Shown here piece after piece: positions 25,936-29,088 of a stretch of 64,000 nucleotides of DNA. The position numbers and the translations under genes were made by a program. The stretch lies in the NCBI RefSeq assembly GCF_053078305.1, contig NZ_CP166879.1, one strand, 5' to 3'. The notes below the pieces were generated by a model. The model saw nothing but the letters and a program-made list of their open reading frames with translations, did not search any database and had not been told where the DNA came from. Each line of letters opens with the position of its first letter. The first letter of the stretch is position 1.

Positions 25936-26262
25936 TTATTTGCGCAACCATTTACCATTAATTCCCTGAACATATTGCCCCGACTTCGCGCGAGCAACAA
26001 GCTTTTGTCCAGCCAGTTTGGCTATCTCTTTAGTGGATACATTATTTTGCTTTGCCAGTTGTTGGTAACTATGGTTACGAGCTTCATTAATATCTTTTAC
26101 TAATGCCTGTGTTTCGGCATCCGTTTGTAGCGCCACCAGGTAACCGTTAAGCGTTTCACCTACCCGCCCCTGACTTCTGGCTTCGTTCAGGGTTAAAGCC
26201 ATTGCACTGTCGCTCATCAGGCCAATGGCCCATACAGCTATGAGTAATGTTCTTTTCATCAT
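25936..26262 (-). CDS. ydbL: DUF1318-family periplasmic protein, third gene of the ydbH operon
   Basis: 108 aa from MMKRTLLIAVWAIGLMSDSAMA (signal peptide); SD GAGGTG. Confidence 0.85.
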   Translation of the reverse strand: MMKRTLLIAVWAIGLMSDSAMALTLNEARSQGRVGETLNGYLVALQTDAETQALVKDINEARNHSYQQLAKQNNVSTKEIAKLAGQKLVARAKSGQYVQGINGKWLRK

Positions 26263-26266
26263 CACC

Positions 26267-26452
26267 TCAAAATAGATCGCTACGGGTTTTGAGCAGGTCT
26301 TCAACGTCCTTATCCGCTTTAATGATGATTTCATGCTCAATTTTAACGTTCATATTAATGGTGATTGGCTCTTTCGGCGCAGCTACTTCAATGCGAGGCG
26401 TGCAACCAACCAACATAAAAGAGGACGCAAACGCGGCTATCACTATTTTCAT
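26267..26452 (-). CDS. ynbE: Small lipoprotein
   Basis: 61 aa MKIVIAAFASSFMLVGC... (lipobox LVGC); start overlaps the ydbH stop (ATGA). Confidence 0.85.
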   Translation of the reverse strand: MKIVIAAFASSFMLVGCTPRIEVAAPKEPITINMNVKIEHEIIIKADKDVEDLLKTRSDLF

Positions 26453-29088
26453 TGTTTTTCCTCACACTCTTTTCCTGATGGGCAGCCAGTTTCCGGTAGC
26501 TGGGCATTCTGCTCCAACCATGCCTGGAGATTATCGCCAAAGCGTAAACTGCGCCACAGCGTAAAAATATTCTCTTCATGATGGTAATTAAGGTTTACCG
26601 TACCGCTTTTACCATCAACGCGACTGGTACCTGTAATGTTGGCCTGCATGGTTAATAAACCGAGATTATCTAAATTAATATTTGTCGATGAACGGCTAAT
26701 TTCCATATAGCGCAACCAGTTAATTGCTGAACCCGCAGTCATATTGTCTTTCACCACCGCATCTGCGGTGTCTTTATCCAGCCGCAAGGTCATTGGCCCG
26801 CTATTTGCCAGCCAACCATCTTTCACTATCCATTTTTCATTGTTCAGCCATAGTGGCAAGGCCCCACTGAATGCCCCGGACATGGCAAATTGTTTCGGAT
26901 TGACGGCGCTAACCAGTTCGCTGGATGAGAGATTATTCAGCCGCAACAGCGCCGGGTCATGTTGCGGCATACGTAATTGTTTCATCAGCACGTTACCGCC
27001 TAACACATCGACGCTAACATCAGTCAACAGCAATGGTTCTTCTTCAGTCCACGGATAACGCCCTTGCAAATCAGCCGTAATATTTTTCGCTGTCACCAGA
27101 TTAATCACTTCGGCAATTCGCAACGTAACGGGGCCGCGAGTCCCCAGATGCCAGGCTCCATCGGCAAAACGGAAAGGCAGGACAAAATCGACACCGTTAA
27201 CCTGATTATCTGACATCCAGGCACTACCGCCTTTCAACACGCCGTGTCCTCCCGCGCGGAATCCTTGTTCAGGCGCAGCAGAAAATGCAACCTGAGCATA
27301 CAGTTCACCATCGCGTAAGTTCATCTTCCAGTCGGGTGGCACCAGCGGCTGGAATACAGTCAGTGATTGTTTAGGCCACCAGGCGTTACCGCGCAGACGA
27401 ATACCGTCCCAGCGACCATTTACCCGAACCGGGCCAATCTCACCAGCATGTAAATCGCCTTTAAAGAGGAAATACGTCGGATCGCGCCCATCGACGCTAA
27501 ATTTTAAGGTTGATGGCGGTAACACACTGCCGCCAGTGAACAGCGTTTGCCCGGCGTCCAGTGACAGCGCGCCGCTGAAGGAGGGATGCTGTGCGTCACG
27601 TACCCAGACGACGGGCTTGTCGAGAATTAATCGCGGCTTTTCTACCGTCATCGTACCGTATTGTAACTGGTCGAAACCGGTGGAGAGATCGGTCAGCGTA
27701 ATCGTGCTGTCATGCCACTCACCTTTTCCTGCGACATCCCAGGTGGCATTCATCGGTGTAAAACTCCCTTTTCCCCAGTAGCGCCACTGCCAGCGGCCAG
27801 CGTCAGGGAGAAAATCATTCGCCAGCCCATCCATATGCAGCACGAAATCGCCCAGTTCATTTTCATGCGCCTGCAAAATGGCCTGCAAACGTCCGTCAAC
27901 ACCACGTTGGGTGACTTTTACACCCGCTAAAGGCCAGCGGATTTCATCGATGTCCAGCGAATCGATGACTCTTCCCTTTGAACGAAGTAACGCGCCTGGC
28001 TCAAAGGTCAGCGTTGGGTCAGACAGACTTCCACTTACCTGCGCAGGTAAACGGGCATATAAAATGAGGTCCGCCTGTTTCGCTTCACCGGTCAGCTGCA
28101 GAGGCAGCTGGCTGTTATCCATGCTTAATTTTCCTGGGCCAAAATTAAGCACCGCGTTGCCTTTACCCGCTTGCCCCTGGGTCAGCACACTAAGTCGTCC
28201 GCTGATCAGAGCGTTCTCAAGCCCTGCCTGCCAGTTGTCGACTTTGACACCCAGTCGGCCACTCAAAGGAAAACCTGCATACGGCCAGCTCCAGCGACCA
28301 TCGCTTACGGTCAATTGTTGACGCGTAATTTGCCACGGCAAATCGAGCAACGGATCGCCGTTATCCCGTGCCAGCACAATCAATTGCCCGCTATTCTCCT
28401 GCCAGTCCAGCTCGGCATCTACCAGTGACGGTTCCTGCGGCAAGTTTAACGTCGCAGTAGCATGACCACTTACAGGAAGTCCATCCGGCACGAGCGGCAT
28501 AGTAAATTCCCCCACCAGTTTAACCGGCGGCTGATTTTCAAACGCGACGACATCCAGTTCGCTGACTGTAAGTTGTTGCCCTTTCAGCTGGCCTTGAAAT
28601 TTAACTTTTTCGCCCTGATAACGCAGTTGCTGGATATCGGAGGTTAATGCGAGAGAGAGTTTTCCCTGCCATTCCTGCCAGGGAGAAAAAATCAGTTTAT
28701 CGATATTGATCCAGGTGTTAGGCAGCATGGACTGCCATTGCGCGAGGGTTTTTGGAGCAGCTGGCGATTGCTCCGTCTGCGGCAATTTCGCCAGACAAGC
28801 AGAATCAAGTTCTACCGTGCCGACGTTCAATAACCAGCGGCTCGGATGTGAAAGGCTGGCGTTGGTGATATGCGCAAGCTGACAATCTCCCACCAGATAA
28901 CGGAGATCGGGAATGATTAAACCTTTACGCGTAATGCGTGGGCTTTCATCTAATGCAATACGTGTCCCGAGCGGTAGCCAGATGCCCGCCAGCGTGGGAA
29001 CCCACAGCCCGAGCGTCATCAGCAGCGTCAACGGCACAAGAATAATCAGTAATAACAGCGCGAGAACGGCTTTATATTTACCCAGCAT
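26449..29088 (-). CDS. ydbH: AsmA-like inner-membrane-anchored periplasm-spanning protein
   Basis: 879 aa; N-terminal TM helix LALLLLIILVPLTLLMTLGLWV followed by a long beta-rich region. Confidence 0.9.
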   Translation of the reverse strand: MLGKYKAVLALLLLIILVPLTLLMTLGLWVPTLAGIWLPLGTRIALDESPRITRKGLIIPDLRYLVGDCQLAHITNASLSHPSRWLLNVGTVELDSACLAKLPQTEQSPAAPKTLAQWQSMLPNTWINIDKLIFSPWQEWQGKLSLALTSDIQQLRYQGEKVKFQGQLKGQQLTVSELDVVAFENQPPVKLVGEFTMPLVPDGLPVSGHATATLNLPQEPSLVDAELDWQENSGQLIVLARDNGDPLLDLPWQITRQQLTVSDGRWSWPYAGFPLSGRLGVKVDNWQAGLENALISGRLSVLTQGQAGKGNAVLNFGPGKLSMDNSQLPLQLTGEAKQADLILYARLPAQVSGSLSDPTLTFEPGALLRSKGRVIDSLDIDEIRWPLAGVKVTQRGVDGRLQAILQAHENELGDFVLHMDGLANDFLPDAGRWQWRYWGKGSFTPMNATWDVAGKGEWHDSTITLTDLSTGFDQLQYGTMTVEKPRLILDKPVVWVRDAQHPSFSGALSLDAGQTLFTGGSVLPPSTLKFSVDGRDPTYFLFKGDLHAGEIGPVRVNGRWDGIRLRGNAWWPKQSLTVFQPLVPPDWKMNLRDGELYAQVAFSAAPEQGFRAGGHGVLKGGSAWMSDNQVNGVDFVLPFRFADGAWHLGTRGPVTLRIAEVINLVTAKNITADLQGRYPWTEEEPLLLTDVSVDVLGGNVLMKQLRMPQHDPALLRLNNLSSSELVSAVNPKQFAMSGAFSGALPLWLNNEKWIVKDGWLANSGPMTLRLDKDTADAVVKDNMTAGSAINWLRYMEISRSSTNINLDNLGLLTMQANITGTSRVDGKSGTVNLNYHHEENIFTLWRSLRFGDNLQAWLEQNAQLPETGCPSGKECEEKQ

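Follow-up and report, generated by a model that had tools for sequence, protein, structure and literature searches.

The ydbH-ynbE-ydbL envelope operon, with a divergent ynbE-ydbL allele apparently joined to an Escherichia coli ydbH

Background

TamB and YhdP, the other AsmA-like candidates for phospholipid transport in Escherichia coli, resemble YdbH in having an N-terminal inner-membrane anchor followed by a long periplasmic beta-groove, and the three are mutually redundant for growth. TamB has the beta-barrel protein TamA as its docking partner, and YhdP is of sufficient length to reach the outer membrane by itself. In E. coli K-12, YdbH has been described as an AsmA-like, inner-membrane-anchored protein, synthetically lethal with tamB and yhdP (mBio 2021, PMC8593681), its function being redundant with theirs as regards both growth and the lipid homeostasis of the outer membrane (PMC8593681). 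YdbH is shorter, and relies on the lipoprotein YnbE, by beta-strand augmentation, and on a dedicated periplasmic chaperone. [quoted passage not shown] The YdbH-YnbE bridge, as well as the chaperone role of YdbL, were reported by Kumar, Davis and Ruiz (PNAS 2024, PMC11126948), while De'Ath et al. (bioRxiv 2026, 10.64898/2026.03.16.712125) solved the crystal structure of YdbL and described how it binds the YnbE helix. A periplasmic protein, YdbL attaches to YnbE at the C-terminal helix and limits the multimerisation of YnbE (PMC11126948; bioRxiv 10.64898/2026.03.16.712125); an excess of it is lethal in tamB yhdP cells (PMC11126948), so that the ratio of YdbL to YdbH and YnbE matters.

The operon, relevant to both outer-membrane biogenesis and the antibiotic barrier, has a counterpart in Pseudomonas aeruginosa, where PA5307 (ydbH) and PA5306 (ynbE) are adjacent and YnbE is likewise required for YdbH function (PMC12447247). 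Between P. aeruginosa and E. coli, YnbE is 49% identical and YdbH 24% identical over about one sixth of its length; the P. aeruginosa paper makes no mention of a ydbL partner (PMC12447247). A further analogue, proposed in PMC11126948 for YdbL and YnbE, is the curli pair CsgC-CsgA, in which a periplasmic chaperone restrains an amyloid-forming partner; the sequences and folds of the two pairs are nevertheless unrelated, and YdbL binds a helix of YnbE and not its strand.

The expression of the operon has also been studied in K-12. Strict translational coupling at the ydbH/ynbE ATGA was demonstrated on a fragment spanning -99 to +30 (Nat Commun 2019, PMC6728339), re-initiation strictly requiring the Shine-Dalgarno motif (PMC6728339), and promoter hexamers for a 'ydbH--ydbL' operon were listed in an RpoD genomic SELEX study (PMC3946193). 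Operon architecture, partners and coupling being already published, no new biology is claimed here from the operon itself. Here, I show how the locus compares with that of K-12 in a window of 64,000 nucleotides (the whole stretch of DNA that was analysed), and consider the origin of its ynbE-ydbL half.

Results

Operon layout and transcription

The locus is the known E. coli ydbH-ynbE-ydbL operon (b1381-b1383 in K-12), with the same genes, order, ATGA, Shine-Dalgarno motifs and promoter hexamers as in K-12 (Table 1). It is present in 5,417 of the 5,426 complete E. coli genomes, where it is annotated as ydbH, ynbE and YdbL, and the body of ydbH is 95-99% or more identical to that of all the 5,417; an origin of the window in a different species was rejected on this ground. 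Among the Enterobacteriaceae species loci fetched, ynbE follows ydbH in 80 out of 80 and ydbL comes next in all 79 that are long enough, the remaining one (L082) ending 70 nt past ynbE; an arrangement shared by every locus fetched is not due to chance. The gap between ynbE and ydbL measures 4-17 nt in all 72 loci with ydbL captured. A genome scan with the YnbE alignment returned matches in Enterobacteriaceae only, and conservation beyond this family thus rests on the P. aeruginosa study (PMC12447247). The reading frames, the ATGA, the Pfam families and the conserved order all agree with the overlapping three-gene envelope operon of the first-pass annotation, whose ATGA overlap is exact in the sequence and whose single N-terminal transmembrane helix in YdbH is the only such segment seen in the hydropathy profile.

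Table 1. Coordinates of the operon features in the window
Feature	Position	Strand	Description
ydbH	26449..29088	minus	879 aa ORF; N-terminal membrane anchor and beta-rich periplasmic domain, AsmA-like / YdbH family
ynbE	26267..26452	minus	61 aa; outer-membrane lipoprotein
ydbL	25936..26259, or 25936..26262	minus	107 aa from the second ATG, 108 aa from the first; DUF1318
Candidate sigma-70 promoter	29200..29226	minus	TTGAAA-15 nt-AAAAAT, exact match, in the divergent ldhA/ydbH spacer
ATGA stop/start overlap	26449..26452	minus	Translational coupling site of ydbH and ynbE
GAGG Shine-Dalgarno for ynbE	26460..26463	minus	Lies in ydbH itself, 7 nt ahead of the ynbE start
GAGG Shine-Dalgarno for ydbL	26265..26268	minus	Overlaps the ynbE stop (TGAGG)
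Putative recombination junction	26450..26600	.	K-12-like sequence ends, divergent block starts

The operon would be transcribed as one leftward mRNA from the candidate promoter in the ldhA-ydbH spacer, which is the same as in K-12 at 205 of 207 positions. A scan for internal promoters gave six consensus-like sites against 6.2 expected from shuffled sequences, hence no sign of independent transcription of the genes; the same scan missed the published promoter, its spacer being 15 nt. Downstream of ydbL, a minus-strand scan for intrinsic terminators was empty and the fold of positions 25840-25960 had a z of +0.38; an Rfam scan gave no RNA family within the operon.

Probable translational coupling of ydbH and ynbE

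The ydbH stop codon TGA (26451..26449) shares bases with the ynbE ATG (26452..26450), and the junction retains unchanged 18 nt of the K-12 coupling fragment, TGTGAGGAAAAACAATGA. Across 73 junctions (72 species loci and the window itself) the overlap is of 4 nt in 56 and of 1 nt in 13, the stop overlapping the start in 69 altogether, and a GAGG, AAGG or GGGG core lies at about the same distance before ynbE in nearly all of them, the exceptions being two junctions with a 19-nt overlap. Ribosomes ending at the ydbH stop would therefore be expected, as in K-12, to re-initiate at the overlapping ynbE start with GAGG upstream, which would make YnbE synthesis depend on the translation of YdbH.

According to an earlier proposal, a local RNA structure prevents ribosomes from initiating independently at ynbE. 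The fold of the -99 to +30 segment (-31.7 kcal/mol, z of -0.01 against shuffles) is not specially stable and, by this measure, gives no support to a stable structure masking the ynbE start.

The YdbH protein

YdbH matches Pfam PF11739 over residues 14-863 (E 4.6e-290) and the NCBIfam equivalog NF007971 over residues 1-878 (1399.4 bits, the cutoff being 824). Its one hydrophobic segment covers residues ~1-40 (Kyte-Doolittle >1.6, with windows starting at residues 1-22), and hydropathy peaks at 1.04 after residue 60. The modelled residues 640-879 are predicted to be mostly beta strands (pLDDT 65-88); a Foldseek search of this part against the PDB gave no significant match, TamB included, and no solved YdbH structure was found. 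The gene is 98% and the protein 98.6% identical to K-12, the amino acid differences being concentrated at residues 863-871, and W791 and W857, both of which cross-link to YnbE in K-12 (PMC11126948), are the same together with their flanking sequence.

The YnbE lipoprotein

YnbE matches Pfam PF13617 along the whole model (residues 26-59, E 2.2e-16). Its lipobox, LVGC, places the lipidated residue at Cys17, invariant in a 12-sequence alignment, and Thr18 at +2, which, not being Asp, indicates outer-membrane sorting. A putative beta-strand (I30-I38) and a C-terminal helix (~K45-T56) follow; the strand, ITINMNVKI, is identical to that of K-12 and invariant in the alignment. Residues 17-51 are those of K-12, and in the mature protein the only differences are E52D and E55K.

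Strand addition of YnbE to YdbH is backed in K-12 by AlphaFold-Multimer models and proline mutants (PMC11126948). In a single-chain AlphaFold2 fusion, YdbH(640-879)-linker-YnbE-linker-YdbL, built on a 24-row paired alignment, YnbE 30-38 is modelled as coil with pLDDT <30, the mean pLDDT being 65; as a linker fusion with 24 sequences, this model is weak, and should be regarded as uninformative rather than negative on strand addition.

YdbL and its start codon

After the ynbE stop (26269..26267) comes GGTG and then ATGATG. The first-pass annotation placed ydbL 4 nt after ynbE, which is indeed the distance to the first ATG (26262), but the second (26259), giving a 7-nt gap and a protein of 107 aa, is the more likely start. 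The second ATG is the start annotated by RefSeq both in K-12 and in the strain closest to this one; the first ATG of ydbL lies at this position in 31 of the 72 loci and at +4 in 17 (15 of which have the tandem ATGATG); and the GAGG motif is 5 nt from the second ATG versus 2 nt from the first. The TGAGG motif at the ynbE stop is common to most species loci.

The product matches Pfam PF07027 (DUF1318; residues 20-108, E 1.3e-30), while NCBIfam has no model matching either YnbE or YdbL, though Pfam has both. Its Sec signal peptide ends with AMA, before L22. Fifteen of the 16 residues of the K-12 mutagenesis list are kept (L24, R28, E35, Y40, N58, R61, Y65, L68, N72, I79, K86, L87, R90, W104 and K107), the exception being E60A, a change tolerated in the published K-12 mutagenesis (bioRxiv 10.64898/2026.03.16.712125), and G31, G34, G39, N58, R61, Y65 and W104 are invariant among 47 distant homologues. 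PDB entry 28oj, the crystal structure of K-12 YdbL, is matched by the sequence with E 1.2e-38; the YdbL portion of the fusion model, the sole portion with a Foldseek match in the PDB, superposes on it with a TM-score (target) of 0.95 and an rmsd of 0.8 A over 86 columns.

A divergent ynbE-ydbL allele

Compared with K-12, the window thus keeps the YnbE strand, the YnbE-cross-linking residues of YdbH, and the fold and critical residues of YdbL, but differs in A60 for E60 and the lack of F108 in YdbL, in the two YnbE substitutions and in YdbH 863-871. The differences belong to a block made up of the ydbH tail (codons ~863-879), ynbE, ydbL, the spacer and an intact downstream autotransporter gene, in place of which K-12 carries the feaR-feaB-tynA-paa island. 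Sliding identity to K-12 is 99-100% above ~26,550 and 72-84% below, whereas that to Escherichia sp. E1V33, the ydbH of which is 87% identical to the window ydbH, is 82-92% above the junction and 99-100% below. Identity to K-12 amounts to 81.7% (nucleotides) and 90% (amino acids) for ynbE, and to 74.9% and 71.6% for ydbL. To go by these identity profiles, recombination inside ydbH has brought in a ynbE-ydbL allele that is rare and very divergent; it is carried by 374 of the 5,426 complete E. coli genomes (~7%), including O157:H7 and O55:H7 strains.

At YnbE 55, K is found in 65 of 66 other Enterobacteriaceae, and at YdbL 60, A is found in 60 of 66, K-12 having E at both. Since the allele matches the majority state at both positions, it is K-12 that is the outlier.

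Discussion

Origin of the ynbE-ydbL half

The locus is probably a natural chimera, in which an E. coli YdbH is combined with a ynbE-ydbL pair near-identical to that of another Escherichia species, the YnbE helix and the YdbL that binds it forming an exchangeable module for which K-12 is the outlier at the interface. The crossover falls in the codons of the YdbH C-terminal tail, a region of low model confidence, and the invariance of the YdbH-YnbE strand interface would keep such chimeras working; along the same line, the natural variants suggest that the contact between YdbH and YnbE withstands an exchange of partner.

The two allele classes may, rather than reflecting a recent import, represent an old polymorphism of E. 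coli and its sister species, maintained for instance by linkage to the fea-tynA-paa island, which some genomes have and others lack. In favour of such an origin are the intermediate YdbL types that exist in E. coli (clusters at 98, 92, 88, 75, 74 and 72% identity), the two YdbL classes, 82% and 70%, that E. albertii likewise has, and the variable position of the junction among carriers (O157:H7 TR01, Res13 and the window); it is nonetheless rather unlikely, since the window and Escherichia sp. E1V33 share the block at 99-100% identity but the flanking ldhA-ydbH region at only 82-92%. A near-identical block beside a divergent flank requires a recent exchange between the two lineages, however old the alleles themselves may be.

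Function of the bridge

It is very likely that the three genes form a coupled operon building a YdbH-YnbE bridge from the inner to the outer membrane, with YdbL as a restraint on YnbE. YdbH would be held in the inner membrane by its one N-terminal helix and extend its long beta-groove into the periplasm; YnbE, which would receive its lipid at Cys17 and be directed to the outer membrane, would extend the groove at its C-terminal end with segment I30-I38 as a further beta strand, thereby completing the bridge. Phospholipids would presumably pass along this bridge from one membrane to the other, a task for which TamB and YhdP are redundant with it. YdbL, exported to the periplasm, would bind the C-terminal helix of YnbE and so prevent a runaway, amyloid-like multimerisation. 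The conserved residues and the modelled fold suggest that this K-12 mechanism carries over to the YnbE/YdbL allele of this strain.

Published experiments bear out the earlier description of YdbH as an AsmA-like protein implicated in phospholipid transport to which YnbE and YdbL are tied, and K-12 cross-links and genetics bear out a bridge anchored in the inner membrane by YdbH and in the outer by YnbE; indeed, the complex prediction, synthetic-lethality and interaction assays suggested as checks had already been carried out in K-12 (PMC8593681; PMC11126948). The fixed stoichiometry deduced from the gene arrangement does not follow, for YnbE multimerises. That phospholipid is the cargo is inferred, and so is the number of YnbE per bridge.

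The bridge might be real and yet serve a purpose other than bulk phospholipid transport, either as a structural tether or for other hydrophobic cargo such as lipoproteins. Biochemical proof of lipid transport by YdbH-YnbE is absent, as its authors state (PMC11126948), the modelled YdbH with one YnbE measures ~180 A and is too short for a periplasm of ~250 A (PMC11126948), and a role in lipoprotein transport is reported for the AsmA-like GspN of Acinetobacter (PMC12802150; bioRxiv 10.1101/2025.09.09.675180). A purpose other than phospholipid transport is however improbable in view of the functional redundancy of YdbH with TamB and YhdP (PMC8593681), of a hydrophobic groove architecture common to the eukaryotic lipid-transfer bridge proteins (PMC11126948) and of a recent cryo-EM and lipidomics study on phospholipid transport by TAM (PMC13119328).

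Coming back to the allele, a decaying or non-functional ynbE-ydbL copy, which the cell could afford as long as TamB and YhdP render the bridge dispensable, could be argued from the lack of phenotype of single ydbH, ynbE or ydbL deletions in wild-type K-12 (PMC11126948) and from the 31 of 108 aligned positions at which YdbL differs from K-12, but is extremely improbable given the three intact reading frames, the retained overlap and Shine-Dalgarno motifs, the dN/dS versus K-12 of 0.027 in ynbE and 0.22 in ydbL (synonymous divergence being high or at saturation), the presence of all function-critical YdbL residues and the tolerated E60A, the majority Enterobacteriaceae state at YnbE 55 and YdbL 60, and the retained YdbL fold (28oj match).

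The allele bears on how the K-12 work is read: about 7% of the complete E. coli genomes make a YdbL 72% identical to the one crystallised and mutagenised, and the YnbE of the carriers has a charge reversal, E55K, in the YdbL-bound helix. With K-12 as the outlier at YnbE E55 and YdbL E60, what has been concluded from these two residues may not hold more widely, and the natural variants, of modest practical value, offer a ready means of finding out which YnbE-YdbL contacts really matter.

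The ydbH-ynbE-ydbL operon

The first-pass annotation described ydbH-ynbE-ydbL as an envelope operon, and correctly so: the reading frames, the ATGA overlap, the family matches, the N-terminal segment of YdbH and the YnbE lipobox are all present, in an operon that earlier work had already described and studied by experiment. YdbH is covered end to end by Pfam PF11739 (E 4.6e-290) and scores 1399 bits with the NCBIfam YdbH equivalog (cutoff 824); its one hydrophobic segment is N-terminal, with none further along. YnbE matches PF13617 and has the lipobox LVGC (Cys17), with Thr at +2, by the standard rule an outer-membrane sorting signal. 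YdbL, whose signal peptide ends in AMA, matches PF07027 (DUF1318), a broad family (1,017 representatives at 50% clustering) in which G31, G34, G39, N58, R61, Y65 and W104 are invariant, the last four being critical also in published mutagenesis of K-12 YdbL. The 3.5-kb region, adjoining ldhA and annotated ydbH, ynbE and YdbL family, is present in 5,417 of 5,426 complete E. coli genomes.

Features of the operon and of its surroundings in the window
Feature	Position	Strand	Remarks	Identity to K-12 (nt; aa)
ydbH	26449..29088	-	879 aa, ORF call	97.8%; 98.6%
ynbE	26267..26452	-	61 aa, ORF call	81.7%; 90%
ydbL	end 25936; start 26259 (or 26262)	-	ORF and family match	74.9%; 71.6%
ATGA overlap, ydbH/ynbE	26452..26449	-	stop 26451..26449, start 26452..26450	
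GAGG 5' of ynbE start	26463..26460	-	7 nt upstream of ATGA	
ynbE stop	26269..26267	-	then GGTG, then ATGATG	
Tandem ATGATG, ydbL start	26257..26262	-	two candidate ATGs	
TTGAAA-15-AAAAAT	29226..29200		exact string	
ydbL-autotransporter spacer	25568..25935		368 nt	
ydbA-like autotransporter	19673..25567	-	intact, 1,964 aa	
Tandem repeat in autotransporter gene	24872..25222		11.8 copies, 30-nt unit, encodes ~PPDDGGDTPV	
Divergent block	19400..26600		junction ~26450..26600	
Rfam small RNA matches	1459..1610, 2170..2233, 34900..35020, 39831..39948, 43326..43421			

The start of ydbL was said to lie 4 nt after ynbE, which is literally so for the first ATG of the tandem pair; the second ATG is most likely the true start, giving 107 aa and a 7-nt gap. 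It is favoured by the RefSeq annotations of K-12 and of the nearest strain, by the spacing of a GAGG that overlaps the ynbE stop, 5 nt from it, and by the species counts, since many species lack the first ATG: the first ydbL ATG falls at the second-ATG position in 31 of 72 scored loci, and an ATG stands at +4 in 17.

A recombinant ynbE-ydbL allele

The modestly new observation concerns a recombinant minority allele. Compared with K-12 in a sliding window, identity is 98-100% from hslJ to ~26,550, apart from a dip to 90-94% at 26,701-26,900, and falls to 72-84% between ~26,550 and the ydbL stop, past which no homology was detected until 94-99% is reached again below ~19,400. The divergent block runs from the tip of ydbH through ynbE, ydbL and the spacer into the autotransporter gene, and is 72-84% identical or unalignable to K-12. 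Synonymous divergence is 0.064 for ydbH, 1.77 for ynbE and 0.83 for ydbL (dN/dS 0.027 for ynbE and 0.22 for ydbL), and five of the 12 differences in YdbH fall within residues 863-871. Against Escherichia sp. E1V33 identity is 82-92% over ldhA and most of ydbH (~87% in flanking ydbH) and rises to 99-100% from ~26,550 onward, a stretch that takes in ynbE, ydbL, the spacer and the beginning of the autotransporter gene as far as the E1V33 contig end near 25,170.

At ≥99% identity the allele occurs in 374 of 5,426 complete E. coli genomes, O157:H7 and O55:H7 strains included, and the K-12 type in 4,864; the spacer, too, is present in 374. Since the block starts at varying points within ydbH among carriers, there have been several crossovers. 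The paa region, flanked by ydbH-ynbE-ydbL, has been described before as heterogeneous (PMC4951805); among 22 papers mentioning ydbL, taken mostly at the level of titles and abstracts, none appears to report the allele split.

Downstream, K-12 has a 19-kb feaR-feaB-tynA-paa island between ydbL and ydbA (feaR-feaB-tynA-paaZ..paaY, 379..19231 of K-12 locus L083), whereas in the window ydbL runs directly on to an intact autotransporter gene, whose K-12 counterpart, ydbA, is a pseudogene with IS2 and IS30 insertions. By blastn, the first ~4 kb of this gene (21,525-25,567) find no match in K-12 ydbA; the protein matches NCBIfam BigA partially (1099 bits, cutoff 3400), best in its C-terminal third. 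The neighbouring autotransporter of E. coli O157:H7 TR01 (4016..6961 of locus L084) carries the annotation of a BigA pseudogene, incomplete; the gene beside the operon has therefore decayed separately in this lineage and, through IS insertion, in K-12. The copy number of the 30-nt tandem repeat within the autotransporter gene probably differs between strains, for alignments to O157:H7 and Res13 are gapped there.

To judge from its sequence, the divergent allele is functional. YnbE residues 17-51 and the strand ITINMNVKI are the same as in K-12, the only changes in the mature protein being E52D and E55K, both within the YdbL-binding helix. YdbL retains 15 of 16 checked K-12 residues, the exception, E60A, being tolerated in published K-12 mutagenesis (bioRxiv 10.64898/2026.03.16.712125). 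The window's state is found at YnbE 55 in 65, and at YdbL 60 in 60, of 66 other Enterobacteriaceae species; on this comparison, the outlier at both positions is K-12. Superposed on the crystal structure from K-12, the YdbL model gives TM 0.95 and an rmsd of 0.8 A. The chief use of the recombinant allele is as natural material for studying interfaces.

Gene order and mechanism

A YnbE-pattern scan with one genome per species yielded 80 Enterobacteriaceae loci; ydbH precedes ynbE in all 80, and ydbL comes next in all 79 reaching far enough. Among 73 ydbH/ynbE junctions scored (72 scan loci and the window itself), the overlap is of 4 nt in 56 and of 1 nt in 13, with four other arrangements, and the ynbE-ydbL gap measures 4-17 nt in all 72 loci with ydbL captured. 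In P. aeruginosa ydbH and ynbE are likewise neighbours, and YdbH function requires YnbE (PMC12447247). Some database proteins of 155-173 aa contain both PF13617 and PF07027 (P0062, P0065 and P0072, metagenome/Logan contigs), as read-through or the fusion of gene calls over the short gap might produce. One E. coli YnbE, P0324 (81 aa), has a 20-aa insertion immediately N-terminal of the conserved core.

The checks proposed in the first-pass annotation have already been carried out in published work, and its interpretation is supported, since the cross-linking, structural, coupling and promoter results agree with it. Its periplasm-spanning YdbH-YnbE bridge, with a presumed lipid cargo, is supported by the outer-membrane location of YnbE and by cross-links to YnbE from YdbH W791 and W857; YnbE forms multimers, strand prolines abolish function, and excess YdbL kills tamB yhdP cells (PMC11126948). 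The crystal structure of YdbL has been solved; the protein's partner is the C-terminal helix of YnbE, and the interface residues are needed (bioRxiv 10.64898/2026.03.16.712125). The bridge model measures ~180 A against a periplasm of ~250 A. In a single-chain fusion model, a design ill-suited to the question, YnbE was not seen to add its strand to YdbH.

The ydbH/ynbE ATGA overlap imposes strict termination-reinitiation coupling, dependent on the internal Shine-Dalgarno motif (PMC6728339); the "fixed stoichiometry" attributed to the operon proteins says more than the evidence supports. The RpoD-holoenzyme site listed for "ydbH--ydbL" (PMC3946193), TTGAAA-15-AAAAAT, is found in the window as an exact string. 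Scans of the operon turned up neither a terminator nor an Rfam family, and internal promoters were not in excess; RNA folds at the ydbH/ynbE junction and after ydbL were no better than those of shuffled sequence. Known small RNAs in other parts of the window match Rfam above the gathering score: sok antitoxin, RydC, MicC, FnrS and McaS.
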